NCBI GenBank assembly: GCA_951406725.2
Contig: OX597818.1
Span: forward strand, 11,346,001 to 11,410,000
Source of the DNA: Octopus vulgaris
Taxonomy: Eukaryota
Length of the DNA stretch: 64,000 bases
Direction of reading: 5' to 3'
Below are positions 20,983 to 61,419 of the stretch, one piece after another. How positions within the stretch are numbered: the first letter of the stretch is position 1; every line of letters starts with the position of its first letter. The notes under the pieces are model-generated. The model was not told the origin of the DNA. It did not search any database and saw only the letters and a program-made list of their open reading frames with translations. The position numbers and the translations under genes were made by a program.

Positions 20983-21241
20983 TGTTTACGTACACACACA
21001 CACATATATATATATATACATAAATATATAAATATATATATACACACACACACACATATATACGCATACACATGTATGTATATATACATAAATATACATA
21101 TATATATAAACACACACACATATATATACACACATACATACACACACACGCACACACACATACATATAGATATATTGTTTTTAGAAACGCATAAATCCAG
21201 AGAAGCACACCCTAAGAAGTAGAGCAGTATATATTTTTCCC

Positions 21242-21316
21242 GGTCTATGGGGTTACCTTGGGTTTCCCATCCATAAAGGGTTTAACTTTATGGCATATCA
21301 TCAGATCCCAAGATCT
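21242..21316 (-). ncRNA. Type I hammerhead ribozyme
   Basis: - strand: AGAUCUUGGGAU CUGAUGA UAUGCCAUAAAG-loop-CUUUAUGGAUGG GAAA CC CAA GG UA^ ACCCCAUAGACC. The core is intact and stems I, II and III can form. Confidence 0.85.
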
Positions 21317-22034
21317 ATTGGCCTATGACCTCTTTAAAATATGGCAGGGAAAAGTCTGGATTGTCTTCCTTTGCCAATGGCTATCGGCTTCCAGCCATAC
21401 TGCCATCGTTTGACTGTGATGGAGAGCAATAGGGGATTGTCTCCCTCTCCCGTTAGCTATCAACTTTTGACAATTCCCAAAAGGCCAGCAGAAATCTCCT
21501 AAAATGCAAACATGACCCAAAAACTTCTGTTCTGGTGTTAAGTATAGCCCTTGGTTTGAGTGAGTCCCTTAGGATTCTCATGCATTCAGCTATGCATAGC
21601 TTGCAGCATTTCGTCTTGTTGATGTAGGGGCCTGAGTTTTCGAGAATTTTCCATGAGATTGAGTGTGGAACTCCGTTGTCTTTTAGTTGCCAAACGTGGC
21701 TGGCCAGTGATGTTGCATATCTCCTTTCTGGAACTCTGATAGAGGATCCATGGTTCCAACCATACTTAACCCCAGAATGGAGATTTTGGGGCCATGTTTG
21801 CATTTTTGGGGATTTATGCTAGCCTTTTGGTAACTGCCAGAAGTTGGCAGCTAACAGGAGGGAGAGACATTCACCTATTGTTTACCATCAAAGCTGAATG
21901 ATGGCAGTACGGTCAGAAGTTGATAGCCATTAGCAAAGGGAGACAATCCAAACTTTCTCCTCCATATTTTAATGAGGTCATAGGCCAACAGGTCTTGGGG
22001 GTCTGACAATATACAATAAAGTTAATCCTTTTAT
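21242..22034 (-). mobile_element. 5'-truncated Penelope-like element with an inverted copy of its 3' end
   Basis: ORF 21453-21803(-) has the GIY-YIG C-terminal signature TSLASHVWQLK..ISWKIL..Y..CKLCIAECMRI..LNTRTEVFGSCLH. Inverted arms about 21272-21546 / 21761-22034. A hammerhead sits in the 3' UTR. Confidence 0.88.
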
Positions 22035-22099
22035 GTACCAGCCTTCACCAAGAAAAAAATATATATGTATATATATATATATATGTATATGTATGCATG

Positions 22100-22168
<69 letters not shown>

Positions 22169-22181
22169 GTATGCATGTATG

Positions 22182-22238
<57 letters not shown>

Positions 22239-22251
22239 GTATGCATGTATG

Positions 22252-22296
<45 letters not shown>

Positions 22297-22312
22297 ACAT
22301 ATATATATATAT

Positions 22313-22349
<37 letters not shown>

Positions 22350-22356
<7 letters not shown>

Positions 22357-22585
22357 CAAATCAGAAAGTCGAGAGGATACAAAATCAACAGACATCAGCC
22401 GGTAAACATTCTAGTATGTCTATTTATTCCAATGCATTAGATGAATACATGTATTAGTAGTACAGAAATGAGTAATACATGTGTACGTATACATCTAATA
22501 CACTGGAATAAATAGGCATACTAGAATGTTTACCGGCTGATATCTGTCGATTTTGCATCCTCTCCACTTTCTTATTTGCCATATA
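22350..22585. repeat. Foldback (palindromic) element with ~100-bp arms
   Basis: GGCAAATCAGAAAGTCGAGAGGATACAAAATCAACAGACATCAGCCGGTAAACATTCTAGTATG.. is reverse-complemented at 22484-22585; starts directly at the end of a (TA)n array. Confidence 0.92.
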
Positions 22586-22800
22586 AATCAAGGGTGTAAC
22601 ACTCAATTGCAAGTTTGCCATGCAATAACTAGCACTTGGGTAAGAATAATTGGATACACTGCTAGTAATAAATTGGAAAGATACTATACCTTAGTTGTTT
22701 TCTCAACCTCTAACTCACACAGAAATATATATATATGTGTGTGTATGTATATATGTGTGTGTGTATATATATATGTATATATGTGTGTGTGTGTATATAT

Positions 22801-25800
22801 AGGGGAAAAGTAAAAAGAAAAAGAAAATGCACATTAGATATAAAAAATAAAGGCTTTTTTAAGAAAAGCAAAGTTATATACATACAATTAGATGACTTGA
22901 GGTGGAATTATCAAGTATAAAAATTATTATTATGAATCATTATAGAGAATCAAATTCATACCGGTATCATCAGAGCTGATCACTGGCTTTGAATGAACAC
23001 CAATTTCCAAACAGTGTTGGGTCTAATAGTACCTAAGTGAAAAGATTACATGCAAGGAAAGTAAGCAGTTCTGGAAGTGATGCAATTAAGGTAGATATAA
23101 ATACTGGAATATGAATGGTGTATGGGATATATGGATATTAATGAGATTATTGGTGGTATTGGTAAGGCTAGTAGTGTCCTGTATTAAGTTGTGTGTTCAT
23201 GTTGAGTTGTGGATGATATTTATTAATGAAAGTTGCCTCTTTATTTATTTTGCTGTACTGAGGTATTCTGTGAACATTGATAAAAAGGGAAAATTAGGAA
23301 GTTCAGTTTAAGGTTCCCAGCACATCTTTCTATGTTCTCACTGACCTCTGTCTGTCTATATTGTGGGTGGCGGATTTGTTCTTTGTGAAGAGCTATTCTT
23401 CGTCAGAGTGATATTTCTGTTTGGCCTCAGCAGGTAATAGCATAGATTAAGTTTTCAGAAGCACAGGTGAACTTTGATTTTATCTTAAATATTTCACCTT
23501 GTTTGAAGTGAAACTCTGTACCCTCCAAAAGATGAGGGCATGTGCCACAGGCTGCATTTTTTCACTTTTGGTTTCATTGTTAATGAATATAGTCTTGCAC
23601 TGGTTAATATTTTTTCAATGATTTCTGTTGCATTTTGCTCTTGATAATTTTGTGTGAGCCTAAAATTTTGTTCATTGTTTTATCGCCAGTGAGAATGGGT
23701 AGATTTTGGATGATGATGTTTAAGGCCTCTTCGTTTCTAGGGTTGTGTGTGGAGATGTATGGGAGTATTTTTAAATCTGGTGTAATATTTCGGTTAACTT
23801 CCCTTAATGTTTGTGTCTATTTCCTTTGCTCGTTTAATCCCATCATTTATTAATGATGTTGGGTAATGTCTCCTGATTAGTGTTGATTTAAGTTCAAGGA
23901 GTCTTCATTCATGAGTATTGATATCTGAAACTATGGTACAGATTCTTTTCACTAGCTTATAAGGTATATTAATTTTTATATGTTTGGGGTGGCATGAGTT
24001 GAATAATAGGTATTGTTTTGAATCTATGGGTTTATAGAAGTTGTCCATTTTGATGTGGTTATTGATTATTTTAATTAGAATGTCAAGAATAGGAAGTTTT
24101 TTTATTGCTGTGTTCCATGGTGAATTGTATGTTGCTATTGATATTGTTGAGCATTATTTTGAAATCAAGGACTTTGTCCATGCTATTGTTCCAAATTATA
24201 AAGCAATCATCTAAGTATCTCTTCCAGTTCTCCTTTAAATAGCAATGAAATGAGGTACCATATTTTTGTAGTGATGATTGGTATATTTTAAGTTCTAGGT
24301 AACCCATTACAAGGTTCACAATCACTGGTGCAGCTCGAATTCCCATTCCAATTCCACATTTTTGTTGATAGTAAACTATATCGAACATGAAATAGTTGTT
24401 CTGTAGGATAAATTTCAGTGCTGCAATTATGAAGTTGTGGTTGATGAGTCCTGGGTTCTCTTCTGGGTATTTTTCTAGCCAGAAGGAGATTGCTTCTATA
24501 CCATAATCATGTGAGATACTGGTGTACAAGTTCACCACATTGAATGATACTAACAGGGTTCCTTCATTTATTGTTTTCAGGAGTTAAGCATGTCTAAATC
24601 ATCCCTGATGAAGCTTTTCACATATTTTTTAAATGGTTTGAGTTAGATGTTGAGGAAATTGCTCAAACGGTGGGTTTCACAAGCAGGGCCACCAGCCAAG
24701 ATGGGTGTTAGTTTGAGGTCAGTAGTGGGAGAATCTTTGCAAGCTTTAGAAATATGTAGATATTTGTGTATTTTAGGTAATCCATAGAATAGACTTGGTC
24801 TGTATTTAAAATTTGATAAATAATCATTTTTTTTTTTAATGAGGCCCTTTCCATGTATTTGAAGTAAGGAGGATAAGATTTTAAGTGTCTTCTGTGGGTT
24901 ATAGCGCTCTATCTTCTCATAGTAAATATTGTTTTCCAGCATGGAGAGTATTTAATTTTCATAGTACTCTGTGTCCATCACTACTACCACACTTCCTTTA
25001 TTGGCTTCTTTAATGGTCAGGCTTATATCATTTTTTAACTTGATTAGCTTTTTCCATTCATTTGTGTTGAAGTTGGATTTAATTCACTGTTTTTGTTGGG
25101 TATTAAATGGGAAATTGGTAATGTTTCACAAAAGTCATCAAGTGCTTTATTTCTGCCTTTTGTAGGACAATATTCGCTTTTGTTTTTTTGCTATTGAGTC
25201 ATCTTCACTGGTGTAGTTGTGAAGTGCTTCTGTGAGGCACAATTTTCGGCAAAAATCCATAGTGTTATCCTTGATTTCATTTGGGTTCAATCTGCAAGGG
25301 GTTGGTGTGAACTTCAAACCGCTTGCTAGAATTTTTGTTTGTGTAATACTTGGGATTTTCTTTGATAAGTTGATATTTCCAGTTGTTCATGTATATTTTG
25401 TTCCATTTCACATCTCTGTTTCTCTGATTTAGGTCTAAAAAATGGTTGTAGTAGGTGGATTGTTGTGGAAAGTCTTGTATTTAGTTTGGTGTGGAATAAT
25501 TGGGTGTAAAGTGCATCTGTGGTAGTATATTTGTTGTGGAGTGACTGTGTTGTGGACTAGATTGTGGTTATTATGAGGGTTGTTATATTGTCTATGGTTG
25601 ATGTGGTTTGGGTTAAATTTACTGCTAATTTTGTAAAGCAGACAGAGGGTGAAGTTATGTTGCTTAGTTAGGTTATGTCTAGTTGAATGCTTGAAGTATC
25701 CATGTTGAAAGTCAAGTCTCGGAGGCAAATTTTTCCATTGTCTGTCAGGCGATGGAGGTAGATTGGTAGGTAATGGTTCTTGAAAGTTTTGGTTAGTCTG

Positions 25801-25938
25801 GAGGCTTTGATGGATCTTTTGATTTGTGTCAGTGAGCACATAGAAAGATGTGCTAGGAACCTTAAACCGAACTTCCTAATTTTCCCTTTTTATCAATATT
25901 CACAGAATACCTCAGTACAGCAACGATTAAATAAAGAG
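22801..25938 (-). mobile_element. Near-full-length decayed Penelope-like retroelement (Neptune-like; RT + GIY-YIG)
   Basis: Frameshifted - strand motifs in order: INLS..GLKFTPTP, NKGSVVVVMD, FYGLPKIHK, NLYTSI, GIGMG, RYLDDCF, FNSCHPKH, CGTC linker, FTCASENLIYAITC, KEATFINKYHPQLN. An inverted copy of 23238-23345 lies at 25828-25938. Confidence 0.93.
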
Positions 25939-26061
25939 TCAATATACAAAGAATATTAAATTTCATACAAAAAATGTATATATGTAAACATACAAAAAAG
26001 TCCAGCTTGCATAGAATAGAATTGATATCAAGAATTAAAGGGGTTGAAAAAGAGTATGACA

Positions 26062-26158
26062 AATTCAACAGCTGTTTCTGGGAGCTAGGTGGTCCAAAAT
26101 AATGATGATAAATTGATTCCATTGTCAGATGATATAAGCTTCCATCTTCAGGGAAGAA
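26062..26158 (-). ncRNA. Hammerhead-like motif with long loop 2 (degenerate stem I)
   Basis: - strand CUGAAGA UGGAAGCU..50 nt..AGCUCCCA GAAA CAGCUG UU; stem II pairs 7/8, stem III is palindromic, stem I is poor. Confidence 0.55.
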
Positions 26159-26255
26159 ATCTTACATTTGAGATGTTAACAGAAAGGAGATTAAAGATGG
26201 AATATGTATATACATATATATGTGTGTACACACACACGCACACACACACTCATAT

Positions 26256-26318
<63 letters not shown>

Positions 26319-26468
26319 CAAACACACACTCACACACATATATGTACATATATACATATATATACAGAGATAAATATATATATATATAAGAATAGAAAAC
26401 TGTGGGACACAAGTGGAATTTCAGGTGCAATGAACTCTCATCCTTACATTCATGTGTGTGTGTGTATG

Positions 26469-26517
<49 letters not shown>

Positions 26518-27040
26518 ATATATATACACACACACATTTATATATGCATACATATGTATATATGTGTGTATATACTAGTATATACATATGTATGTTTTCG
26601 TGTGTGTGTGTTCTAGTATATATACATATATTTATACATAATCATTTCTAATTGTAATTGTCATATTAAACAGATCGCTGGCAGGGAAGAAGGCCTTTAG
26701 CTATGATAATTACATATACCTAGCAAGGAAGTGTTCTATCAATGTACTAACATGACAGTTGTTTTGATGTACTGACATCACACTTCATTACCAACAACCA
26801 TCATTTCAAGATGCTGTTGCCATACTAATGTTGCTAATAAAATATGAGCAACAGTATATATGTGTGTGTGTGTGTAATACATTGTAACCTACAGTGCATT
26901 CAGTTCTAACTTTCACTATGTAGTCAATAATGCAATAATGGAACTTAGTTTACATTGTCTCATACATATACATACATATTTAGAGATATAGATGTATGTG
27001 TTTGAGATACATTGTATATTTATATACTCTGTGATATATA

Positions 27041-27095
<55 letters not shown>

Positions 27096-27785
27096 TCTCC
27101 TACCTCAAGTAACCGCAAGGAAGATGTATATCATAACACTGCACTAGGAATCTCTGTCCCCCCATTAGTTTTTTTGCTAGCTCTCCGTGTCATGCTGTTT
27201 CTGCCAATGACACCAGTGCCACTGATTGGTCTTTGCCCTCTTTTAGAGTACAGAAGACTTCAAAATATAATGTGTGTGTGTATGTGTGCATGCATGTATA
27301 TATATATATATATATATATGTGTGTAAAGCATAATTATATGATTAAGAAAAGAATTAGCAGACATGTGATACTTGTTGTGCTTGTGCTACAATGGTGTAC
27401 TGCTGATGTTCATTAGCCAATTTCATAATGAGAAAGCTCCAAGAACATTTCTTAGATAAGACTATCTTACTGTAACCTCCACTGACCACGAGAAGGCAAA
27501 CTTGACCAAATACCACACTATGTAGTCTATTTGTTGTTTTAAAAAATTGGACATTGATGAGTGGCATGAAATAGTCATGCAAGCCATGTACCAGTATATT
27601 GTAATGAGTCCAACAAGGGGTTTAACATGCAGTATATGCCCATCAGAGCTCAGTTCTAAGCACCCACATATTTATCATAGTTTTCCAAGGTATAATACTG
27701 GAGTTTAATAAGCCTTGTTGTTTATGGGTTTTGTACATTAATAATTTAGTTCTCATAGCTGAATCTGTAAAAGATTTAAGACAAG

Positions 27786-28014
27786 CTTCATTTTTATATT
27801 TGGTTTGCAAGATTCTTTATGTGAATTCATTTGTAAAAACAAATTTTGTTGTGCCTTAGGAAAGTCATTATGCCAATATTAAGAACACACGCACTGGTTC
27901 AATTCCACTCCTTGACTGATTGTAAAGGAGTTGAATTGAACCAGTGCATAGTGGAACTGAAGCAGTGCATGTGTTATTAATATTGGCATAATGACTCTCC
28001 CAAGGCACAAGAAA
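27786..28014. mobile_element. Hairpin insertion flanked by a 12-bp target-site duplication
   Basis: ATTTAAGACAAG at 27774-27785 and 28015-28026; inverted arms 27841-27913 / 27925-28018, with a 21-bp tandem duplication in the right arm. Confidence 0.85.
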
Positions 28015-28222
28015 ATTTAAGACAAGAAATTTTAAATAAGGAGGCATATCCCAGAAGGAAGAGACTTCAAAGAAGACAGGACTTTATTGCTACTGGGGAG
28101 GTGTTCGTGTTTAATATGCAGAAAAGAACCAGATATGAACTCTGTTCTTTATAGAAAATGTAAATATGATGATTGACAGAGAATGAAGATCTGTATGTAA
28201 CTGATACACAGAAGTTATTATA

Positions 28223-28429
28223 CAGAGTGCTGCAGAAATACCTCCCACATTTTAAACATTCACCTATGTGTTGCTAATGAACTTATGCAAGTGCCAATGA
28301 TATTTTCATTTAGCTAATGAACAAAAACTGTAACCCTTTTTTTAAACAACAGTAAAATTAATTTTTCGTAAATGTTGTTTCTTTTTCCTTTAGTCAACCT
28401 TTCAAATGTGGGTTTTCTGCTGCACCCTG
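28223..28429. mobile_element. Tc1/mariner-type MITE nested in the RTE
   Basis: TA|CAGAGTGCTGCAGAAA..CCCACATTT ... AAATGTGGG.TTTCTGCTGCACCCTG|TA. Confidence 0.85.
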
Positions 28430-29020
28430 TAGTAAGAGCAACTAGAAAATACGATTCTTTCAAAGAACCAAATGGTTTCCCCATAAGTACGTCAGGGTGT
28501 TCTGAAGACTTGGAAGCTAGAGTAAGAAAAGGGCTGTAAAAAAGTTCTGGGAGCTAGTACCTTTCCTAGTAACAAGGAGATTCTCTCTCTGAATGGAGAG
28601 GTGGATTTTATGATGATTCTTGTGTATGAAATGTGACATTACATGGTAGCAAAATATTGGCTCTTAATGCAGACAATGTGTAACGGCAAGAGAAAATAAG
28701 GCAAGCATACCCTACTGGATGTGTAATGATCAAATGAGCTGAAAGATAAATGGTACATGAGTGGAAGCAGATTTAGTGTGTGAAAGATATTTCACTGGTA
28801 CAGGCATGTGATGCATATGGAAGCACAATACTCAAGTGCAAAAAATGTCAAGAGATGAATGTGGAAAGAACTTAAAGAGGAGGAAAACTGAGGAAGACAC
28901 TGGAGGATGTTGTGAAAATTCGCTGAACCTCAGAAAGTAGATAGCAAATGGCAAGGCATTGTGCTAAAGAAGACACATCCAACCCATGCAATCATGGAAA
29001 ATCAAATGTAAAATGACATA

Positions 29021-29598
29021 TATGAGGATAAGCCTTTCAGTAACTGCAGTTTGTTTATAATTATTTTTCTTGATGGAATATTTCTTGCCTACATATCACT
29101 AAATAGTGTCTCACTCTAATCACTATGGCATACGTATGACCTCCATATTTCAATTAGGAAAATCAGTAATCCCTTTTCTGTGGGCAGCAGGTGCATCAAT
29201 AGTTAAAATCCATAGAAGGCTTTCTGTACAGTATGGAAACAGCTTTATGCTGCATGTCTATGTATAGTTTGCAAAATGGCTGCATAAGAAACTATTTGGT
29301 CGCATATATCAAGAAGGAACAGGATACTTGATCCCTTCCTATTCTGATGACAGCATTAAAAGAGTCCAAGATATGATTCCGTTCAACAGACAGGTAATTA
29401 TAGATGAGATGTCAAAAATTATACAAGTTAATCATGGTTCTGCCTATCAAACCGTCCACAACAGAGTTGGCCATAGTTAATGCATTGCAGCAACTAGAAG
29501 GAGACCACATTTAGTGATACACATGCTACTAATCTTTCTACCTTAAAAGAATAAAAAGAAAAGTGCATTGCGAATAATTACTGGTCCATTTTTGTTAC
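29021..29598 (+). mobile_element. Internally deleted, decayed mariner
   Basis: SVIPFLWAAG..IHRRLSVQYG..SIKRVQDMI..NRQVIIDEM..IQVNHGSAYQTVHNRVG is a mariner N-terminal HTH region; weak TIR remnants at both ends. Confidence 0.75.
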
Positions 29599-30388
29599 AT
29601 GCATACACCCGCATGAATATTGTTGCTTTTACTCTCTTGCATTTATTATAACCATGCTATGCTTAAAATATTGGTTCTTCTTCAGTCACCATATTTAAGC
29701 AGTGCTTTGTCTAGTAAGTACCTAGATGGATGACTGCTTGAAATTTTTGAGTACTATAAGTGCCTTTATAGAATAAAGAATTTGTCAATGTTGCTGTGAT
29801 TATGATGATAGCAGCAAGCTGATGGAACTATTAGCATGCCAGACAAAATGTTAGCAGAATTTTACCTGCTTTTATTTTCCTGAGGACTACTCTGCCTTTC
29901 ATCTTTATGGGGTCGATCAAATAAGGACCAATTGAGCTCTGGAGTCAATCTAATCAACATGTCTTGTGCTATATTAGAAAGGATGATTATTAGTATTAAG
30001 ACAACAAGCTGGCAGAATCATTACCTTCCAAGTGGACAAATGGCATTTCATCAATCTTTACATTCTGAGTTCGTATTCTTCTGAGGTTGACTTTGCCTTT
30101 CATTCTTTTAGGGTTGATAAAATAAGTATCAGTTTAGTACTGGGATTGATGTTATCACCTTACCCCTCCCCAAAATTGCTGGCTTTATACCAAATTGTGA
30201 AACCATTATTATTGCTACTACTTCTACTGCTGCTTATTTTTTCCTGACATATCAATAACAGTTATGTATGGTGGTGTAATATTTTTTTTTACAATTTGGA
30301 CATCACAGTCTTTCCTGAGATTGAAGTATATGTGTATATATATGTATATGTATATATGTATGTATGTATATATATATAGTCCATTCTA

Positions 30389-30440
30389 GCAAAAACTGTC
30401 CGATGAACGGCAACGGGAAACTCAGAGTAACAGGTTTTGT
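30389..30440 (+). ncRNA. Minimal hammerhead ribozyme motif (U4C variant) in a short insert between (TA)n arrays
   Basis: GCAAAAACUGU CCGAUGA ACG GCAA CGG GAAA CUC A GAG UA^ ACAGGUUUUGU; stem I pairs 10/11, GCAA-capped mini stem II, palindromic stem III. Confidence 0.75.
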
Positions 30441-30464
30441 TGAATTTTCTGCTGCTTTAAATAA

Positions 30465-30512
<48 letters not shown>

Positions 30513-36000: not shown

Positions 36001-36694
36001 TGATGATGGTCTTGACAATGGTTATGATCATGATGATCATGAAAAAGGTAAATATCTAGTTGTCATTGAATTCTGGCTCATACCTGATCTAACAAAGCTA
36101 TGATCAAATGCATTTTTGCTATGGTCTTCCTGCTCCATATTTTGTTTTCCCTCTTTTTTTTTTTTTGTTTTGTTCCACATATTGTATTTGTTACTTGCTT
36201 TTCCAATGTTTCATTTATTTTTCAAGATGGCAGAGTGTAATTTCAAAGAAATGTATTTACTCTCTTTAGCTGATCAAGCAACTCTTATTGGGTCATGAAC
36301 GAGCTATACTTTTTCAAGTACAAATTAATCTCAAATCAAATTAAAATAAACCTGAAGTAAATTAAAATTGTCATGAAGCAAATTAAAATAAACTCAAAAT
36401 ATTTTAAATCTGTTCTCTAATTAAATAGTTCCATCAAAACACATTTCTGTTGCCTTTATCTAATGAGTAATAAATTAAAGTTTAAATTTGTCTTGCAAAA
36501 CGTCTTAAACATGTATCAAAAAATCTTTCTTGAGTTCACTGGAATCATCTGTTTTGGAATTGTTATTCTAACTCTGAAAGCAATTGGCTTCAGTGAAATC
36601 ATTCTTTCATCGATGACTTCTTATAAATAGTTTGTGGGGACACTATCCATATATCAAGAGTAAATGTTCTTATTCTTCAATATTAATTGTCAGT

Positions 36695-36918
36695 AAGGTG
36701 ATAAGCTGCCCGAATCATTAGCATGCTGGAGACGATGCTTGGTGACATTTTGACCGTCTTTATGTTCTGAGTTCAAATTCCAGTGAGGTCTGAGGTCACA
36801 TTTATCTTTCATCCTTTTGGGATTGATAAAGTAAGTACCAGTTGATCACTAGAGTTGTTGTAATCGACTTAGCCCTTCTCCTAAAATTGCTAGGCTTGTG
36901 CTAAAATTTGAAACCAGT
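36695..36918 (+). mobile_element. SINE family B nested in the TIR element
   Basis: AAGGTGATAAGCTG..GAGTTCAAATTCC..CTTTCATCCTTTTGGGATTGATAAAGTAAGTACCAG..AAAATTTGAAACC. Confidence 0.85.
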
Positions 36919-37059
36919 ATTAATTGTGAGTATTCACAGGGCCTATAAGATGAGGATTAGCCGTACATCAGTCCTGGGCCCATGATTATTTGCTATGTCA
37001 TTCTCTAAAGTCAAAATCTTCACAGCCTACTTGAATTTTATTTAAGTAGACCTCCCACT

Positions 37060-37164
37060 TTCCTATACCCACAGAGCACATTATCAAATTTCTCTCTGAT
37101 ACTCTGAGTATTCCTATACACACAGAGCACATTATCAAATTTCTCTCTGATACTCTGAGTATTC
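37060..37164. repeat. Near-perfect 51-bp tandem duplication
   Basis: TTCCTATAC(C/A)CACAGAGCACATTATCAAATTTCTCTCTGATACTCTGAGTA twice. Confidence 0.95.
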
Positions 37165-38835
37165 ATTTTAACCATGCCTCGACCATTTCCAGAGTTCCAG
37201 AGTGATACATGAACTCTGTACATTCAGTTACATGCTGTTATTTTCTTAATAGTGTGTGCCGCAGTAATGGATCCCCAATCTTCTCATTCAGCAGTAGGTG
37301 GTACAATATATTAAAGTCTCAAGTGCATATTTCTTGTGTATTCCAACAACCCTTTTGCTTCTCTTTTTGACACCCTATGAAATATCAGTTCTCATAACTT
37401 AAAATAAGTCATCATTACTTTGAGATTGACTTTTGTTATTCATATGTAAATGTGACATTGTAAGTCTGATGACGATATGGATTGAAATTTAAAAGGAATC
37501 AGCATAAGTGCAAACAATTCAAATAGATATCTGCTATGTTTTATCTAAATATCTACTATTCAATTTGCTCCTAGATTGTTTTAATTTGCTCTGAGATTAT
37601 TTTAATTTGCCCTGGGATTATTTTGATTTGCTTTGAGGTCATTATAATTTGCTTCAAATATATATTGATTTGCTTTGAGATTATTTTAATTTGTTCTTAA
37701 ATAGGTGTAGTATTTGCTATAGAGTGATAAAACAGAATGCAGATTTTATGTATTTTCAATTGCTTTGTTCAAGCGTCTTTATACTTTTGCGATTAGCTAA
37801 AGCAAAAAGGAAAATAATTAACAACTGTTTAATGATATATACAGTGTCAGTGCTGTATACAGCAGTGAACCAAACCTTCTTATGAAATTTATTTACATCT
37901 AGTGAACTGAGCCAGTGAGAGTTAACAGTCTTGTCCACATACTTTGTATATAACCTGTAAAATTAATATCAACCTTCAATCCTTCAGCTAATTTCCTACC
38001 AGGTTATCAATTCTGACAGCAGTAAATTCAGTAGAAATCCACATGTGCTTGCACATGCATATATGCATGTGTGTGTAGTTGTATATATGTGCACCTTTGT
38101 GCATGTACATATATCTGTATATGTGAGTGTGTGTGTGTGTGTGCACACATGCTGAAACAGACACTCACACACATATGTAAACATATATATATATATATAT
38201 ACTCTGTGTGTGTTTTTATATACACACACACAAACATTTGATTTGATATGACCAAACCCATAAAAATAAATGCTTTAACGATATACTCTAATAGAATTAA
38301 ACATTCCTATATTTACCAAAATTTATTTCTATTCTCTATTTAACATTAGATGAAAGATATCAAAAACTAATTGTCTGTTTGCATTAATTAACCATGCACC
38401 ATTTGATGAGTTTGGGGTTTTTTTGCTGTTTTATTGTATTTAATTCCTTATTTTTTTCTTTGTGAGTAACCCCTGCAGCTTCTTTTATGCCTCCTCCTAC
38501 TTTCGATTCTTTTTTCTCTCTTTTTCCTTCTAAATCTTTTTCATTCCTATTGTGTCTACTTCTTCCACTTTCTTTCACATTGTTTCTTCCTTTTCTTATA
38601 GTTATTTTCTCTCTTTTTTGCTTTATCTTTTTCTTCTCTTTTCTTATTCTGTCTTTCCCTTTCTTATTCAATCTTTTCCCTTCATTTTCCTTCCTCTTCT
38701 TACTACTGCTACTATTATTGCCACTACAACTACTAATATTTTTATTTTTTATTTATTTTTTTCCTTAAATTTTTTCCATATCTATTTTCAAATAACAATA
38801 GTAACACAGACACAATTCAATAGAAAAACAAAATG

Positions 38836-47674: not shown

Positions 47675-47753
<79 letters not shown>

Positions 47754-48965: not shown

Positions 48966-51900
48966 ACCTATGAGTATTTTATTTCTTTACCCCCACCTAC
49001 ACACACACACACACACACTCTCATGTTGTGCATAGACTCCCTTGTCAGAAATGCAGTGGAACGATAATTGGCATTTCTAGAAACTTATAACCAATGGTGC
49101 TATTGTTCACAAATGCCTGATACAAAAGTTTTTTGTTCAATTATGAACATATCTAAATAATAGCAGTTCAAGGCAGTTAGGAAGCATATACATGTTCACT
49201 TGACCTGCTTGAAATTGCTACCCCATTTCTCTCATATAACACTCAACCATCTTAAATATGCAAGGGACACATTGGATAATATAAAGTCTAGCTATATAAT
49301 GATAGAAATTTGGGGGAAAGGAGGTTACTTGATTATTTTTATCAACCCCAGTACTTGACTGGTACTTATTTTATCAAGCCCCAAAGGGATGAAAGGCAAA
49401 GTCAATCTTATCAGAATTTGATCTCAGAATATAAAGCCAGAAAAATGTCATTAAGCATTTTGTCTAGCATGCTAATGATTCTGCCAGCTCTTTGCCTTAA
49501 TTCTAGATATTTAATGGATGTGAAACACGAGATGTTTGTGGATGGAAGACTTTTGAACATAACTTTTCTTTGTCAGAGTCGACCAGGTGTTAAATAAGAA
49601 TTGTAACAACAGTTTATTTAAGGAACAGTTCTTAACTAAAGCAAAAATAAGACGTAGAGTAAATTTTGTTGATTTGTTTTTTAAATATCTTCTGATAGAT
49701 GTTGAATATGAGATAGGAATACATATAATTGAATGGGTGTCTAAGTTATTTTCTCAACAATTATACCTCCATATGCCAAAGAGTGTACATCAATTAATTA
49801 CTAATTCTCTTATCACCACTTCATTAAGTACAATGAATTCTATGGCTTACTGATGAGCTTATAATATGACTGAAACATGTCTTCTGTTCTTGTTGAAATA
49901 ATTGAAATAATATAGAACATTGACTTATGTTTTACTTTCTTCTGATTTTTTTTCAATTATTTGTTGTTAGATTTATAATGCCATTAAATATTTTAGCTTT
50001 AAAGCATTATATATGTTGATATTGTGATTACTAGAGAACCAATGCAGTATGGGCTATGAATGAATAAATAAATATATGAAATGATAACTTTATGTATTTA
50101 GTTTCTTTCTGAAATTAGATGCCACACAAGGGTTGCTTGGCAGATTGGGGTCTGGATTGAACCAATGTGTTCCATTGCCACTTAACTCATTATAGTCCAC
50201 ATACCTCTCTCTCCCAAACTGCAAAATGGTAGAAGCAGAAGACCACTTATTAAAATGTAAGCAAGTATCTACCTAAGTACAAACTCATTTCCATAATGGT
50301 ACATGGACAAGGGCAAGACAATAATTACTTGTGTGTTGATACTGAGTAGGTTATGAATAAATAAAGCTACATATGAATTAGGCTCCATGTTTAGTACAAG
50401 TATTTTGTCATGCTGTGAAATTGGGTCCTGTCAAAGCTTGGAATGAGAATTGATTAGCAACTCATTCCTGATTAGTTGTTGAGGAACTAACAAAACTGGT
50501 TGGTTTGATCCTCATCATAAGGTGACAAGGTTCTCATGGAGCCTAACTTTATACAGTAAGACTAAATACAGTAAACATGACTCTAGTTCATCTTGTCTTC
50601 ATTCACATATCTGGTGTATTATGGGAGCATAAATCCCTCAACTACTTGATTGATATTTTATCAATGCTGGAAGGAGGAAAGGTGTAGCTGACCTTCATAA
50701 AATTTGAACTCAGTACATAGTGCGCCATAACTAAATATAATTAGATTTTTGTTATGTTTTTTTTTTTTAATATGAGGTCAAGAAAGACAAACTACTCTTG
50801 TCTGAATTCAATTGTTTTGGTCAACCTAATGAATTTTATTTAACAAATTTTGGCAGTGCTCTTTAGTACTTAAATAACACTGCTTTACAACTTAGCTAAT
50901 TTTCAGTGGTTGAGTTTCCTGTTACCAAAAGCAAAAGAAATTAAGAGAAAATCAACATCCACAATTTGTTATATAGATAAAAAATCAAGAAACACACGCT
51001 TATGTAAATGGTTTAGTTAGAGCTGAAGGGGAGTACCTATTGCCCTTTTCAAGGTCTTCATGATAAGTTGGAGGAAGAGAGAAATTTATGCTTAATCTTG
51101 TTATTTTGTAGCATACAGAATAGAATAATTTATAAAATAAAATTTATTCACATTCTTCTCTACAAAAGTGAATGAATCCAAACATGCCATATTAGAAACA
51201 TTTGAACCAAATATTTTGCTTCACTTATCTCCTTATTACACTAGTGGGTTTTTGTAAATATATTTTGGTGGAATAATTATATAAATAGTTTCGAACTTTA
51301 GCACAAGGCCAGCAATTTCAGTGCTTTACTGGTACCCACATTATTGACCCCCACCCAAGGTTAAAAGGCAAAGTCAACCTCAGAATGTATGAACCAAAAG
51401 AAATACTGCACAGCATTTTTTACTGATGTTCTAACAATTCTGCCAGCTTTCCACCTTTGTAATAATAGTAGTGGTAACAATAATTCTTTCAAATTTTGGC
51501 ACTTGGTAAGCAATTTTTAGGGGAAGGAGGTTAGTTAATTGACCCTAGTGGTTGATTGGTAATTTATTTAATCATCTCCCACTCCCCCTAAGATAAAAGG
51601 CAAAGTTGGCCTTGGCAGGATTTGAACAAATAATGCAAAGCATCTTTTTCCTGAAACTTTTATGATTTTACCAACTTACTGCCAGAAAAAAAAAAAAAAC
51701 CCTTGTGTATTTTTATTCTACAGAAAAGACCTGAAGGGAAAGTAACAGATTTTATTGGTAGGAATATGACACAAAGAATATTCAAAGAACCAGTCTCAAA
51801 GGCACAACACTGCCAGTAAATAGAACCAAGAATTAGCTTTGATGTAAAGTGATAAATGTTTATGCATTTTCTTTCAAACTAACTGAGATAAGTATTCTTA

Positions 51901-52720
51901 CCTATAATTATAGACTGTGGTGATTATAGTCTAGCTTGGCTCAGCACACTTCATACAAATCAAACAAGACATGACTATGTATGAGGCACAGGAATTTTGA
52001 TGGATGTTTTACCAACCAGAGTATTCAAGTCAGTTTTAGTGGGGAAATACTTAATAATAAAGCAGCAAAAGACTTTATCATGATCGTCAATATTTTAATG
52101 TCCATTTTTCCATGCTAACTTGGGGGTTGAACAGGTGTGAAATATAACATCTCGACACTCATTATTGTGTAATTATGTCACAGGTTCATTATCTTAAGAT
52201 TTTACATTGCCTTTTTCTGCCAGTTTTTGTTTTTTTTTATCTTCATCTGCCAATAATTCATTTCTCTTTTGCCCAACACTCATCTCTTTGGCATCACATA
52301 TCTATACCAGCACAGTCATCCCTCCTACAAACAAGTGTCTTTGATGCTTGGCCTCTCTCTCTCTCTCTCTCTCCTCATTCATGCTCCACTAATCTTGCAA
52401 GTTAATGTTACACATTCAAAATATCAAGCTGCTCATGAATCTCTCCAGCTGGCCTCATTTGATGTACATGTCACATTACAAAATAGCTTCATACTCCTTA
52501 CACACTATCGCTTACCATCTTTCCTGTCAGTACTGCTGTTGCTGAATATTATAGTTCACTTCTTCTATTGATGCTGGCATTTTAAGATGTACTGATTGAC
52601 TTGAATGCTGCACAGATCTGAAAAACTGTTTATAACAGGAAGCATAATTCTTAGCAAGCTTAAGTAAATCATGAAGGTAAAATAAAAATACTACACAAAA
52701 TCCTTATTTAAATACATGTA

Positions 52721-53025
52721 CAGGGGTTGGATGAAATAATGGAAACACCTTAAAATTTCGAACAAATTTCTTTTAATATGGGGTAGGACTGCCTTTGGCA
52801 GTAATTACAGCTTGAATTCTATGAGGTACGGACTCGTACAAAGTTTGAATTGTTTCCAAAGGAATTTTTCTCCATTCTTCAGCTTAAATAGTCTCCAGTT
52901 CTTGTAGTGATGATGGCGGAAGATATCGACTCCTTACTTGTTTTTCTAAAAATGCACCATAAATGTTCAATAATATTGAGATCTGAGGACAGTGGTGGCC
53001 AGATAAAATGTTCAACTTCACTAGA
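52721..53025 (-). mobile_element. Tc1-family transposon 3' end fragment
   Basis: - strand WPPLSSDLNIIEHLW..SLQELE..EEWRKIPLETIQTLYESVPHRIQAVITAKGSPTPY*, then a TIR ending at TA|CAGGGGTTGG. Confidence 0.9.
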
Positions 53026-56000
53026 ATTAGAGTTAACAGTTCTATCTAAATTCTTCCATTGCGCAATATACACACATTGGTGTACAATTGTGTTTACACT
53101 TATATATATAATTTGCATCCACACACTTCACAGTTACAAAAACATTGAACTTATGAATGAATAGAAATTTGTGCTATCTTGTTAAATTAGGTATGCTCAA
53201 AGTGGATATTGCTTTAGAGAAAGAGTTGTTTGTTCATGTAACATAAGTGATTTAAAAATAGCTGCAGGTGTAAGAGTGTTCCATTCCTATGGACAGTCAG
53301 ATCTTGAAAAAAGTTATTCCACAGATTCTGATTTAATTTCAATTTCAATGAGCTTGTTCATAAAAATGGGGTTAAGTTAGGTTGAGAATACTGGATGAAA
53401 GACTAAACTTCAAGGTGGATAGTGCTGAATAGTTTCACACAGTTGTATGTTTGTATATTTGTTTACAAAATACATCCTTTACATTTTCAGAACCTTATAT
53501 CAGAAACTATTTAATTAAAAAAACAATTGTTGACAGCCAGAAAGAATCAAGAATTGATTTCCTTATTTGAAATATATTCCTTCATTGTATTTGAGTACAT
53601 ATCACAAGGCTAACAAGGAAAAACAGTTAATTTCTTATGTTATTGTGTTGTTTTGCTCTTCTTCTTTTTTTTCTGGTTGAATCAAGTTGTAGAAATTTGC
53701 TTTTAATTTGTATTTTTGCAATGGAAACTTTGAAATTTACTTTGAAGAGTTCAGTAATACACATAAACTCATACAACAAATTATATATGCATATATATAC
53801 ATATATATATGTATGTATGTATGTATGTGTGTATACACACATATACAAACATACTACATACACTTTGTCACGTTTTACAACCATTTTTACATTTAGAATT
53901 ACTCATCAGGTTAATTTATGTAAAGCATTATATATTTTTCTTTTTCTTGTTAACAATTAACTTGTTCATGACATTCTTTGGAGACATTTAACTTGCTTTT
54001 TTCCATTTCTTATTCACTTTCTGTTAAAGTTTCTACAATTTTATAATACACTGTTTCAAATTAAATGTCTCACACTACACAAACCATATGTAAGTTGGTC
54101 ATTCCTACCTCACCTTCAGCAGTTATAAAAGTATTGGTTTATCTTAAGTAGTATAAAGACTTAAGTTGATAGATTCACAAGAAAATCTAATTTTTCAAGT
54201 TAAATTACATAGAACAAGTTTATATTATAAGAAAATGTCCATCTGTCTAATAGTCTGGCAACATTCTTCACCAACACTACAACCATTTACCAGACAATTT
54301 CCTCTGCACCTCCTCTGCCTCTTCTATTTTTATAACAAATATAACATTGGTTTCTGCTCCTCTGAACTTACTGACCATGTACCACTCAACCATTTTACTC
54401 AACTCTACTGTATTCTTTCCCACAAGACCTGATAATAAACTACATATTCCTATCTTTCTTCAAAACTCTCTCTCTCTCTCTCTATCTCATATTGTGAATA
54501 TAATAACGTAGGATTTCTAAATCTCACAAAGCTGCCTGTTTTTCCCAGTCTATAATGTTCTAAAAGTGCTTTAGGTGCAACTTTTCCATGTCAAAATAAT
54601 TTACAAAAAAAATTAAAATAGAACAAAATCAATATAGCATAAAAAATTAGCTACTATAATCAATTTTTAAAAAACTGAAAATTTTTTGGCAGGTGAAATA
54701 AGTTAATACAAAACCTAAATGTTTCATGTTCTATAATTAATTAAAGTTATTTTTATTATGGTATGGCAGTCAGATATCTCTCTCTTTAATTTATTTTTTT
54801 CTATATAATTCCATTCTTTGAATTTACTGTTTAAGTTATATGAGTTGTCTTTTGCAGAAAATAGGAATTAATGTATATTAAAATATGTTTGAAAACATTC
54901 TGTTAGTAACAATATAGGTAACAGTTATACCATAGTTATGAGGCTTGAAAATTTATTTATTAACACTTCACCCAACATTTTGGAATTGCTATTTTACTGT
55001 TTGAAAGATAATATCATGTTTCAGGACATGGGTGATGCAAATATCATCTCATGCCCTACTAGGGCAGAATCTCTCTATGTAGCATAGCTGGAAAAAGTTT
55101 TGTTCAGATTCTTATCAACAAACTGTAGAAGTTGGCTATACATGAAAGGGCAGTAAGAGGCACTGTGACTTCTAGTGTATGACTTTTTACTAGTGTTTAT
55201 TGATTATAATTACGGTATTGAAAATATTTGCTCATCTTGTAGAATAGCCCAATTTTTACCAGTTCTTCAAAATTGGTACTCAATTTTGTGAAATGTCACA
55301 ATGTCATACTTTAATATAACTAGCTGTGGAACAATGAGAAATGTATCTGTATTTCATATTCATGATAGAGATAGAACCCAGTTCACTTGCAGAATTAATT
55401 TCCAACTGGAAATCTGGGTGATTCTACATGAGAGCCATATAATCAAATGTTAGGCTATTTTAATATAAAGGATTTTTTTTTGTTTTTTTTTCTGTTATAA
55501 AACAGATTTTCATCATTTTAAAGAAACTGCTTTACTTTTCAATAATTATCAATGGTTTCTATGCCAACCCAGAAATTCTTTGCTATCTACCATTGGCTTC
55601 CACTAACACCTCACTTCCTTATCTATCTCTATTTCTAGCTGACCTTTGTTGACCTCGACCTGACCAGGAATGTCTCCTCAGTTGTCTCTTTTCTGGATAC
55701 CTATTTAACAAGCACAACTGTGTCTCTCCACAAGGCAGATTCTTCTCACTTACTCACACCTACCACACAAGCCAACACTGACACCTTCCTCCCCACTGCT
55801 AGCGCAGATAGTATATGTAAAGCATCTACTTCTCGTGGCACACAAACAACTAGAAATAGTTCTTTACCTATCACATCACCTTTCACCCACTATCACTGCT
55901 TTGCACTCAGCAAAGACTTTCAATAATTCCCAGCCTAGCTGCACTATGCACTCTTCATTATCTACTGCTGCAACTAAGCTTTCAGGTAGATGTCACTATC

Positions 56001-58749
56001 TCATTCCCTGTCCAAAAGTATTTGATATTCACAAAGCCAACCATGTAGATCTTATATATAAAAATTATTGCATATGATCATTATGGTAGACTATGAAATA
56101 TAATAGTTCTCAGTTTTCAGTTCTAGTTACTTTGTTTTATGCTTTTTTTCCCTTTTTTCTTTTCTTTTTTTCACAAAACATCAAGTGAAAAGAAATCGTA
56201 TAAAGATACCATGGATGACTAAGTCACACATTAAAATGATAGAGCTGCTATTGCTATATGCTTCATGATATCACAAAGTCTTTACTATAACTTTGAATTT
56301 TGGAATTTTCTTTCAGATTTTCTGTGTTTAGAGTTATATGAGACTTCACAAGTGGTTTGAGTTCTACAAGAAGAAAAGAAAACAAATTATTGAATGTTTA
56401 AAACTATTGATTTATAGATATAGTGTGTCTGCAGACTACAAGTAACCTATCATCTCCACTAAAATTACAAGATTTTTCCTTTTTAACTTGCCGATAGCTA
56501 TAAGAAGTTTTGTATTAATGTAATCAAGACATTTTTTTTTCCTATTGTATAAACTAAAATATATGACAGCTTTTGTGACACAGACTTGTCATTAATATAA
56601 AAAATATATAATATAGACAAATAAAATATTTTAATCTGAGTTTTGTCTTTCCACTATAACATAATTATACATAATATTATCTAAAAGTATACATTTTAAG
56701 CAAATTCATTATCTAATATAGAACACTTGGCAATTAGTTCTTAGAATCAGTCAAAGTTATCCCCTAAGCTATCAAGAGAAAATGATTTCATAATGAGGCA
56801 AGTAATGAGGAATCTAGGAAATAACTGGGTAATTCTGGAGGTGCTTATTTATTATTTACTTTGAAATCTATGTTAAATATAATTGGATAGAATTGTGTTC
56901 CTATTACCAATTTGCTTTCAACCATTTGAAGTTTGTTCATTTAGATAACATTAATGATGTACAAGGTGAAACTATTTTAGAACCGAATACAGATATTGAT
57001 ATTCATTTTTGTTTTTATGCTTCTTCTAAGATTCATCAATAAGAAATGCTTTTACTTCTTTTCCTTAATCACAAATCATCAAATATAAAGATAGATAACT
57101 TTACCTTGATCACAAACAAAATGATAAACAAAAAGAAATTTCTATTTTTATTAATAGTTGCCTTAATCATAAACTTATATGAAACATTGCTTTTGGGTTT
57201 ATCTTGATAAAAAAAATCAATAGGTATAGAAATTTTAGTATGATAACCTTTAGCCCCAGATAAGCAATATAATCAAGAGATCAAAGAATATTTCCTATAT
57301 TTGAATTATTTGGAGAGCTTGTGTTTAATTTAAGTTTCTATAGCATTTAGCTGATCGGAGACAGCATTTGCTCCTGGATAAGATTGCAGTCTATTACAGA
57401 CAAATTCTCTAAAAAGCTCTGGTTTCTATTATTTAAACTAGTTGGAGCTAAATGTATAAAGTGTCTCATCCAGAAACACAACAAAATGCCTCACAAGCCA
57501 GGAATCAATACACTATCTTCACCACAAATCAGTTAATGTAGAAATTTTCTATTATAAACTTTATGCTCTGATAAGCAGCAATAATATATAATCCTTAGAA
57601 AGATATCTTAAATCCCACATGAGCTCATATAATATATTTCCCTTTAATGCAGTCTTGACCTTTTAACCATAGGCATAGAAATGTTACTATTGTAAACGTT
57701 ATCCTCATAAAACTGATATAATACATTGGCCTTTATATTGGCATAACCTTAAATCAATATTTTGAGAAATTTGCTATTATAAACCTTACTTTAAATCACA
57801 GATGAACTGATACACTTTGGATTTTCAACTATATTTCATTTGCACATTACATTTAAATATTGTATTCTATAAACAGTATACATCTATCTGACTCATTGCT
57901 TTAAATGACTCGCAAATTCAACATATGCATATTCAAAAATTTCTTCCTAGCTTATTAATTTTTTTCTCTTTTCCTTTTATTTGTTTTATCTGGGGTTTTT
58001 TAACTTTAAATTCTTAGTACTGCCACCACCACTATCTTATATTCATTTTCTAATTTGATTTGATTCCACATAATCATTCCATTTCAATTAATCTTGCAAT
58101 TTCGAAACTTATCTTCAGCATATCTTCTGAAGGTCACAAATGTTCCCATTAAAGAGCTTAATTTCATTTCTTAAGCCAAATTTTATTATCTTTCTTGTAG
58201 ACTGGCACAGCTTAATTTTCTATACTCAATGATATAAAGACAGAAAAATAAATTAAAAAACAAACTAAAAATTACATTTTTTGACATCAAATTTCCAAAG
58301 TCAGCTAATTCCATAGAAAGTAATTAAAATATACATTTGATTCTAATGTAGGCTATTAAGAACAAATTCTTTATGAGTTATATAAACAGATTTGTGGGGG
58401 TTAGATAAGAAAATGTTTTATATATATTGGCTATCCAGACGATGTCTAGAATTACATATTAGCTTTTGTATGTGTGTGTGTGTGTGTGTCCACACATGTG
58501 CATTTGTGTTTGGGGGGAATCTTATTACCAAGGCTAGTGTTATTGACATAGTTTAGAATCCAAACTACTTGCAATACCATATTTAAAGTTCATTGGTTCC
58601 AAGTTCTGAGTCCATACCTTGCAGAGAGGAATCAGTTTGGTTTTCATCTTAGTATAATTGAAATAACTAATAGTTAAATACTGTGGTTGACTGAGTGTTC
58701 TATACAGCCCCTCACTCTTAAGCATATTAGTTTTCTTACTAATTTGGTT

Positions 58750-58939
58750 TTGTAGTAAGAAATTTGCTTCCCAACCACATGGTTCCAGGTTCAGTCCCAA
58801 TGCATTGTACCTTGAGCAAGCATCTTCTTCTATAGCCTTGGCTGACCAAAGCCTTTTGAGTGAATTTGGTTGATAGAAATTGAAAAACTGAAAGAAGCCT
58901 GTTGCACATATATGTATGTCTTTATATATGTGTGTATAT

Positions 58940-58980
<41 letters not shown>

Positions 58981-59192
58981 TGTGTTTCTGTTTGCCCCCT
59001 CCTCAACTGCTTGACAACTGGTGTTGGTGTGTTTACATCCCAATCACTTGGCAGTTTAGCAAAATACACTGATTGAATAGTACCAGGCTTTAAAAAAATT
59101 AGTACTGGGGTCAATTAATTTAACTAAAATTCTTCAAAGCACTGCCCTAGCATGGCCTTAGTCTAATGACTGAAGCAAGTAAAAGATAAAAG
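58750..59192 (+). mobile_element. SINE family A, full length
   Basis: CCAACCACATGGTTCCAGGTTCAGTCCC head, TA array, tail ..AATGACTGAAGCAAGTAAAAGATAAAAG. Confidence 0.85.
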
Positions 59193-59737
59193 ATACTTAT
59201 AATGCTTTAGCCCACTCTGATGAGGTAGAATCATTAGGGAGTCAATCAAAATGCTTTGTTTTGTTCTGGCTCTTTACAGTGTAAGTTCAAATTTGGCTGA
59301 GGTGAACTTTATCATTCATTGTTTTGCAGTTGATAAAATAAAGTACCAGTCTATTGGTGTCTTGCACTTTGTTCCAGCTTTTATTGTTCTCAGTTTGCCT
59401 GGCTACCAGCCTTTGCCTTACCCATGTGCAACAGCAACAGAATAGAGAACAGTGGCCTACAAGCTTAGGTAACTGCTGGTCTCCTGTTAAAACTAAAAGA
59501 AAACAAAACTTTGCTCCAGCCTGAGCCATGGAGAGAAACTTTTCCAGGTGTAGATACATGATCAACATGGACCAAGTGAGGTCACAGATTATAAATGATG
59601 ATAATGTCTTTATTTTTACCACTTGGACTACTTGGTTAGAGAAAAACCACTGAACAAATTCATCCACTGTTGCTGTTGTTGGTCACAGGGTTTGTGGAGA
59701 GAGCTACAGAATGTGGGGAAGGAAGTAAGCCTATATG

Positions 59738-59778
<41 letters not shown>

Positions 59779-60124
59779 GTGTATTTAAGTCAATGTATGA
59801 ATTCGAGTAATCCAGTAGTGCTCATAATAAAAGCTCTTTAATGTATCATTGTGCAAACCATATAGAATATATAATAATATACAAGAGAAAAGGATAAGGA
59901 GTATATAAAGTCATTAATGATAGAGAAATATTTAGATGAACTTTTATTTAACAAAAGAAATATCCAAATATTCACAACAAAAATTTATGCAAATAACTTA
60001 AATTGTCATATTTAATAATGAATAAATTACTTATATGTCTGCATTATTGCAAAATGCAAAAACTCATTTAAAATAACACAGAAGTATATATTATGTCTTA
60101 GCAACTGAGGCTGTATTAATACAG

Positions 60125-60276
60125 AGAGGTAATATTTATGCCCACTTAAATGTGAATGTTCAGTTAGGGAAAATTATAACTAGACCAATCCATGACAGTT
60201 TCTCTCATGGTATCTTCCACAGTATAGTTTGTCCTAACAGAACACCCATGTTTAGGTGGGCATAAATATTACCTCT
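60125..60276. repeat. Foldback element with ~54-bp arms abutting a TA/TATG array
   Basis: AGAGGTAATATTTATGCCCACTTAAATGTG.. versus ..CATGTTTAGGTGGGCATAAATATTACCTCT. Confidence 0.9.
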
Positions 60277-60280
60277 AAAG

Positions 60281-60301
60281 ATATATATATATGTATGTAT
60301 G

Positions 60302-60356
<55 letters not shown>

Positions 60357-60511
60357 ATATATGTATGTATGTATATATATATATATATGTATGTATATAT
60401 ATATATGTATGTATATATATATATATATGTATGTATATATATATATATGTATGTATATATATATATGTATGTATATATATATGTATGTATATATATATGT
60501 ATGTATATATG

Positions 60512-60543
<32 letters not shown>

Positions 60544-60647
60544 TATATGTATGTATATATATATATGTATGTATATATATATATATGTATGTATATATAT
60601 ATATATGTATGTATATATATATATGTATGTATATATATATGTATGTA

Positions 60648-60680
<33 letters not shown>

Positions 60681-61005
60681 ATATGTATGTATGTATGTAT
60701 ATATGTATGTATGTATATATGTATGTATGTATATATATATATGTATGTATGTATATATGTATGTATGTATATATATATGTATGTATGTATATATATATGT
60801 ATGTGTATGTATGTATAAATGTATGTATATATATGTGTATGTATGTATATATGTATGTATGTATATATGTATGTATGTATATATATGTATATATATGTAT
60901 GTATATATATATATATGTATTTATATGTATGTATATATATATGTATGTATGTATATATATATGTATGTGTATGTATGTATATATATATGTATGTATATGT
61001 GTATG

Positions 61006-61057
<52 letters not shown>

Positions 61058-61180
61058 TGTATGTATGTATATATATATATATTATTTATATGTATGTATA
61101 TATATATGTATGTATATATATATATATATATATTTATATGTATGTGTATATGTATGTATGTATATATATATACATATATA
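60281..61180. repeat. ~900-bp compound (TA)n/(TATG)n microsatellite
   Basis: Direct reading; source of the 300-aa spurious ORFs. Confidence 0.97.
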
Positions 61181-61235
61181 AGCAATAATAAATCTCTGAA
61201 CGCAGTGTAAACAGTAGCTGCACGACAATGTGAAG

Positions 61236-61378
61236 TATATTTGCCATTTAAATGTGGCTAACAACTAAGGGTGGATGCTACTGCAGCTTGTAGGTAGCTG
61301 GAGAAGATGTTCTCCTAGGGCTACAAGCTGCAGTAGCATCCACCCTTAGTAGTTAGCCACATTTAAATGGTAAATATA
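61236..61378. repeat. Near-perfect hairpin, 58-bp arms (56/58 complementary), 27-nt loop
   Basis: 61236-61293 is the reverse complement of 61321-61378; ends in (TA)n. Confidence 0.95.
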
Positions 61379-61419
61379 TATATATATAAATAGACAGGAT
61401 GTTTTTAAGTCTCATCTAG

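Follow-up and report, generated by a model that had tools for sequence, protein, structure and literature searches.

Foldbacks beside TA arrays in the octopus genome: a Hydra-type PLE end joined to its inverted copy, and a probable insertion of the same kind

A 64,000-nucleotide stretch of Octopus vulgaris DNA (assembly GCA_951406725.2, contig OX597818.1, positions 11,346,001 to 11,410,000), called the window below, carries a foldback, P1, in which the 3' end of a Hydra-type Penelope-type element (PLE) lies head to head with its own inverted copy. A second foldback, P5, and possibly a third, P4, would be insertions of this kind derived from the end of another abundant repeat, likely mobilised by a PLE; the probability of this reading is about 0.68. 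The initial annotation had tentatively attributed five foldbacks, P1 to P5, to a Penelope-driven system generating hairpins at AT repeats. A PLE origin is established for P1 and likely for P5, but the system is not new, as its architecture and its preference for (TA)n are both described in the available text of PMC8557442 and PMC3846280. The architecture is already known; P1 and a further element, PLE2, add new octopus representatives to established kinds of PLE.

The window consists of AT-rich animal DNA and contains 92 tandem-repeat rows, and the named proteins that it matches indicate Octopus or a relative. It was scanned for palindromes by masked self-BLAST, and the arms were then compared base by base. 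All five palindromes were recovered where the initial annotation had placed them, and the window holds 13 inverted pairs with a spacer of at most 3 kb versus none in each of 10 local shuffles. The arms are identical at 222/273 positions in P1, 92/102 in P2, 62/70 in P3, 45/55 in P4 and 56/58 in P5. Compared with shuffled sequences, P5 and P4 fold with z scores of -18.8 and -9.8, respectively. The description of the palindromes as unrelated in sequence holds overall, except that weak short motifs are common to P2 and P5 and to P4 and P5 (shuffle p 0.008); 14 of the 925 pieces of the window, including P2 and P4, score as highly. The foldbacks other than P1 are:

22354-22583: P2 hairpin, found by masked self-BLAST at 22355-22580, with symmetric TATA-(G/T)GGCAAAT ends
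27841-28018: P3 hairpin, containing an internal duplication of 21 bp and without a TA array close by
60125-60276: P4 hairpin, within 60093-60276
60093-60124: candidate P4 tail, one-sided, 32 bp, ending at a short TA run
61241-61373: P5 palindrome as found by masked self-BLAST

A sixth, older palindrome of 79 bp lies at 9347-9425; on its left side, 36 bp away, is a (TA)3 run.

P1 and PLE2, two PLEs with inverted copies

P1 consists of the following parts:

21236-22035: P1 as a whole, a 5'-truncated Hydra-type PLE and its inverted copy, head to head
21761 to ~21236, minus strand: element copy (arm 21272-21545)
21762-22035: inverted copy (arm 21762-22035)
21453-21755, minus strand: C-terminal end of a Hydra-type GIY-YIG endonuclease
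21248-21309, minus strand: candidate type I hammerhead motif in the 3' end, found by descriptor

The claim that one of the palindromes derives from the 3' end of a PLE is borne out at P1 by the endonuclease end, its profile score and the hammerhead. The endonuclease fragment has 2203 relatives at E<=0.001, the closest being an O. bimaculoides model (71%). It scores 130 bits on a GIY-YIG profile of 149 Hydra-type proteins, a second profile being based on 16 Neptune-like ones; the fragment itself has no Pfam match. No RNA data set was listed as containing P1, which carries no weight as to its expression. Its invariant columns (CxxC, E, N, E, CxH) fit the description of the Hydra clade in the available text of PMC8557442, and by hand count 50 of 89 residues are identical to those of Hydra-1_Obim. 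The perfect-core hammerhead descriptor matches once in the 64 kb, at 21304 on the minus strand, and never in five shuffles. When one core mismatch is allowed, 7 matches are found in the window versus 0-2 in the shuffles. A hammerhead over P1 is not among the Rfam matches listed, and the best 150 of the 348 Rfam matches to the whole window are microsatellite-driven only.

Both copies in P1 face outward. The element copy is truncated inside the endonuclease, and the RWK and DKT motifs of the reverse transcriptase (RT) and the CxCX5C linker lie outside the remaining stretch. The inverted copy is also 5'-truncated, and its arm ends inside stem II of the hammerhead. Runs of (TA)3 or longer are found 37 bp to the left and 23 bp to the right of the arm ends. 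The extension of ~36 bp on the left against 23 bp on the right may represent a tail, or else a deletion in the right arm. P1 has an inverted 5'-truncated copy and lies at a (TA)n site, as do the EN+ PLEs. Separately, a 51-bp piece (86%) is common to 21178-21228, flanking P1, and 4856-4906, flanking a mariner derivative, and in each case lies beside a TA run.

A second PLE, absent from the initial annotation, is located between P2 and P3:

22805-25410, minus strand: PLE2, a decayed, near-full-length, putatively Neptune-like PLE with RT, Cys linker and GIY-YIG
25374-23201, minus strand: remains of the PLE2 ORF
25828-25942, plus strand: inverted copy of the ORF end, 93% identical to 23233-23345

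The pieces of PLE2 match residues 13-751 of P0003, a 752-residue RT plus GIY-YIG protein. A Cys-rich linker precedes the GIY-YIG domain, whose end scores 110 bits on the Neptune-like profile; PLE2 is probably Neptune-like. Its inverted copy (115 bp), upstream of the element, is atypical in that it stops short of the 3' UTR. A degenerate, hammerhead-like half motif is present near 22975 on the minus strand. As P1 and PLE2 each possess an inverted copy, two proven PLEs within 5 kb carry such copies.

P5 and the other foldbacks

Individual copies of P5 were studied by aligning run contigs, at 80% likeness, to positions 61182-61760 in 4 of 24 listed runs. The parts of P5 are:

61183-61293, minus strand (assigned by analogy with P1): left copy, the 111-bp end of an abundant repeat
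61183-61228, minus strand: optional tail of ~46 bp, part of the left copy
61296-61378, plus strand: right copy, 83 bp, inverted and tail-less, followed by (TA)7

The runs yielded 2764, 2224, 1258 and 936 contigs aligned to this stretch, counts that include a small second repeat at 61622-61721. The latter is a low-copy repeat whose depth is raised in all four runs. The summed depth of P5, which is not a copy number, is 10^3-10^6, compared with 4-85 for the single contigs listed. The P5 family is a very abundant repeat. The unique flank to the right of P5 has zero cover in three of the four runs and carries no evidential weight.

Contigs that run past 61293 without folding number 40, 51, 37 and 32 in the four runs, and past the fold they enter the mirror of the loop and beyond. 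On the other side, 22-25 contigs in three runs have upstream sequence ahead of 61296. These two observations show that the parent of P5 extends beyond the fold; it is visible to ~30 bases upstream. The loose-end consensus upstream of P5 ends distally in a hammerhead-like half core, which was rejected because the second half of the core is absent.

Loose ends with long, mixed AT-rich flanks occur at 61229/30 in each of the four runs. A second set, present in at least two of the four, occurs at 61183/4, a position placed within a few bases since the aligned stretch began at 61182. P5 therefore has two outer ends, ~46 bp apart. The outermost meets a 900-bp TA/TATG array. The ratio of tail depth to arm depth is 0.11-0.37, and the tail slightly exceeds the 30-40 bp published for PLEs. 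The right arm of P5 does not quite reach the common short end, stopping 7-8 bp before it.

Head-to-head joints account for 9 of 11 among the matches listed, and all nine are different, with a left copy of 19-111 bp and a right copy of 42-83 bp or more; one further head-to-head joint is present among the matches listed. Each joint is seen in a single contig, whose shorter side spans 20-32 bases at 80% likeness, and no joint is repeated between runs. Two "opposite strand" joints map to mirror positions, represent linear read-through and were removed from the fold count.

The run-on contigs, the two outer ends and the variable joints together indicate that P5 consists of two truncated copies of one end, head to head, one of them tailed. 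The initial annotation had raised variation of the fold point as a mark of PLE origin: in P5 the joints differ, the parent passes the fold and the tail is optional on one side. The fixed arms and constant fold that it had set against such an origin were not seen. P5 lacks the symmetric outer ends and constant interior of a fixed-end MITE, and its pattern fits the published PLE architecture better. P5 is thus probably a PLE-type insertion family, one whose motifs are absent from the octopus Naiad and Hydra consensus set in the available supplement of PMC8557442.

For P4 the chances of a PLE-type origin appear about even. P2 and P3 may be of the same PLE-type kind or may be ordinary TA-site MITEs, and for either of them the former is possible at somewhat less than even odds. 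Protein, profile and descriptor searches of the window gave no PLE protein match and no perfect-core hammerhead for P2-P5, and among 2442 translated frames no GIY-YIG profile scored above 2.7 bits in or near them. Five short motifs of P2, P4 and P5 have no relevant match in the available supplement of PMC8557442, where three chance matches fall in other taxa. Pattern scans gave 0 loci for P5 and P2 in viral contigs and 0 loci for P5 in metagenome contigs. The 18-residue frame at 60100-60180 in P4, which the initial annotation had likened to the end of a GIY-YIG ORF, is present in the sequence, yet it scores below 0 bits on both profiles, compared with 110-130 bits for real PLE ends, and has no Pfam match. 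Its inward orientation is also the reverse of that of the PLE in P1, and it was rejected as a GIY-YIG remnant.

TA arrays and alternative origins

Two long arrays separate pairs of foldbacks:

22059-22353: 295-bp TA/TATG array between P1 and P2
60281-61180: 900-bp TA/TATG array between P4 and P5

The distances to a long TA array are 23 bp for P1, 0 for P2, 521 for P3, 4 for P4 and 55 for P5. The nearest runs of (TA)3 or longer, to the left and right, respectively, are at 37 and 23 bp from P1, 0 and 141 from P2, 521 and 999 from P3, 33 and 4 from P4, and 55 and 0 from P5. The claim that four palindromes directly abut TA microsatellites is accurate for P2 and P4, and for P5 by way of its tail and of the (TA)7 on its right; P1 is separated by 23 bp and P3 by 521 bp. 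P1, P4 and P5 are bracketed by TA runs left and right, which is consistent with insertion into pre-existing arrays. The brackets are lopsided in all three, against 5 and 0 bp for the mariner foldback described below, and those of P4 (33 and 4 bp) suggest a weak resemblance to P5.

With the P5 tail included, four of the five foldbacks lie within 30 bp of an array, compared with ~5% for random placement, so that the association exceeds chance; the background for (TA)3 or longer is 9% within 40 bp. Array adjacency is not special to foldbacks. Two ordinary families adjoin arrays about as often, with 5/9 copies of one and 3/6 of the other within 30 bp, and two more have 0/10 and 0/5 copies near strictly alternating arrays. 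In the four families together, 8 of 30 copies have an array within 30 bp, and no copy is itself palindromic. The proposed enrichment of palindromes beside (TA)n stands against random placement and not against the first two of these families. The four families are dispersed and SINE-like, with copies at 3699-3844, 6896-7080, 5811-6011 and 5560-5704 among others, and number 9, 6, 10 and 5 copies, respectively.

Two of the three longest arrays have foldbacks on both sides and the third (14185-14483) has none. Larger targets suffice to explain this distribution without seeding, and the suggestion that hairpins seed microsatellite growth finds no support. The same applies to the suggested production of dsRNA, beyond the predicted folding.

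The window also contains foldbacks of another origin. A mariner derivative at 3939-4818 is folded on its own left end, with ~190-bp arms (75%) that include the start of its ORF. Its TA ends are symmetric and it adjoins an (AT)n array, with (TA)3 or longer runs 5 bp to the left and 0 bp to the right. This element shows that DDE transposons also form long-armed foldbacks at arrays here. Elsewhere, inverted ends (73%) made of 21-bp subrepeats surround 1.2 kb at 36304-37710; the interior has a 51-bp duplication and a copy of a dispersed repeat, and the whole resembles a TIR element that bears subterminal repeats. A DDE_3 transposase remnant (Pfam E 8e-6) lies at 52882-53127 on the minus strand.

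The mariner foldback lends some weight to the idea that P1 alone is PLE-derived and that P2-P5 are internally deleted MITE or foldback derivatives of long-TIR, TA-inserting DNA transposons. Run-on reads and variable joints would also be expected from long TIRs with random internal deletions, and the ends of P2 are symmetric. TIR elements that target TA microsatellites, such as MuTAnT, exist in plants (PMC4486113, available text), and recent activity is assigned to 65 MITE and 49 unclassified TIR families in the O. vulgaris annotation (PMC13282606, available text). For P2-P5 together this origin is nevertheless unlikely; for P2 and P3 it may well apply. The two alternative outer ends of P5 and the one-sided 46-bp extension of some copies are not the behavior of TIRs, the right side of P5 does not show the other half of a split target, and P4 is lopsided as well.

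It is improbable that P5 is a non-autonomous derivative with unequal inverted ends, of a DIRS-like, Crypton-like or Helentron-like element. The inverted repeats of DIRS-type elements do have a one-sided extension, and small hairpins are frequent in the visible part of P5. However, P5 is very abundant, its inner truncation is extreme as well as variable and its tail depth is mostly well below half of the arm depth; no ORF of the DIRS, Crypton or Helentron type was seen for P5, and a literature search for CryptonV found nothing. The proximity of four foldbacks to arrays would also be expected if DNA breaks at cruciform-prone TA arrays, repaired by fold-back, had made hairpins after insertion from any adjoining repeat, but this is very improbable given the absence of palindromes among the ordinary families, P3 without an array, and P1 and PLE2 with the published PLE geometry.

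Formation of the hairpins and comparison with known elements

The preferred reading, insertion by a PLE, allows the formation of such hairpins to be described in some detail. In vitro, a PLE nicks both strands of AT-rich DNA and reverse transcription begins at two sites bounding the tail (PMC11167929, available text). The PLE endonuclease would accordingly nick AT-rich or (TA)n DNA in the octopus, and reverse transcription would start at either of the two sites. Both DNA ends may then be primed, or the template may prime itself; head-to-head PLE joints with palindromes have been interpreted as self-priming in the available text of PMC3846280. If copying halts early and the two short cDNAs are joined by their 5' ends, the product would be an almost perfect hairpin, tailed on a single side and lying within a pre-existing TA array. 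The construction of the inverted copy is named as unresolved in the available text of PMC8557442, and an abundant P5-like family would offer thousands of natural junctions for studying it.

It is conceivable, although doubtful, that the octopus has several abundant, possibly ribozyme-free, PLE-mobilised mini-elements, near-pure hairpins of 140-240 bp that are formed anew with every insertion into a (TA)n array. If so, a share of the families filed in octopus under "MITE" or "unclassified TIR" would in fact be stubs of retroelements, and would supply ADAR and the small-RNA pathways with perfect RNA stems throughout the genome. A role in dsRNA formation or microsatellite growth would bear on RNA editing and genome size in cephalopods; nothing here shows one. 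No description of PLE hairpin stubs in octopus was found in the literature searched, which lacked most subscription papers, and the curated O. vulgaris repeat library (Zenodo; PMC13282606, available text) may already hold these families.

Very short PLE-type insertions resemble MITEs, and only the ends of individual copies, with a one-sided tail and a variable fold, separate the two. MITEs have fixed, symmetric TIR ends. The ends of P5 are neither, those of P2 and P3 may be both, and the window shares with the MuTAnT-type MITEs and MULEs the presence of short foldbacks inside TA arrays (PMC4486113, available text).

According to the available text of PMC8557442, Naiad and Hydra PLEs are biased towards (TA)n, the linker of Neptune is proposed to mediate a bias of this type, and (TA)n is the listed target of the octopus family Hydra-1_Obim. 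P1 resembles Hydra-1_Obim in its CxxC...E...LNxRxE...CxH end, its TA flanks and its canonical hammerhead, in which stem III is short. It belongs to another family, as the 3' UTR and the hammerhead differ by eye; P1 has an inverted copy, whereas the available supplement of the same paper gives no pLTR for Hydra-1_Obim. PLE2 has the RT and the Cys-rich linker before GIY-YIG of Neptune-type PLEs, as well as an inverted terminal copy. It departs from them in that no perfect-core hammerhead was found in it and in the inverted copy stopping short of the 3' UTR.

The closest architecture is that of Pen2a_Av and other EN+ PLEs (available text of PMC3846280; PMC8557442, Fig. 2), in which an inverted 5'-truncated copy lies beside the 5' end and a tail of 30-40 bp is present at one end. 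The window shares with them the head-to-head inverted 5'-truncated copy, the optional one-sided tail, the palindromes at the joints and the AT-rich or (TA)n sites. Unlike them, P5 has a tail of ~46 bp, no ORF or hammerhead was seen in it, and it is cut to 111 + 83 bp, so that almost nothing but the mirror pair remains.
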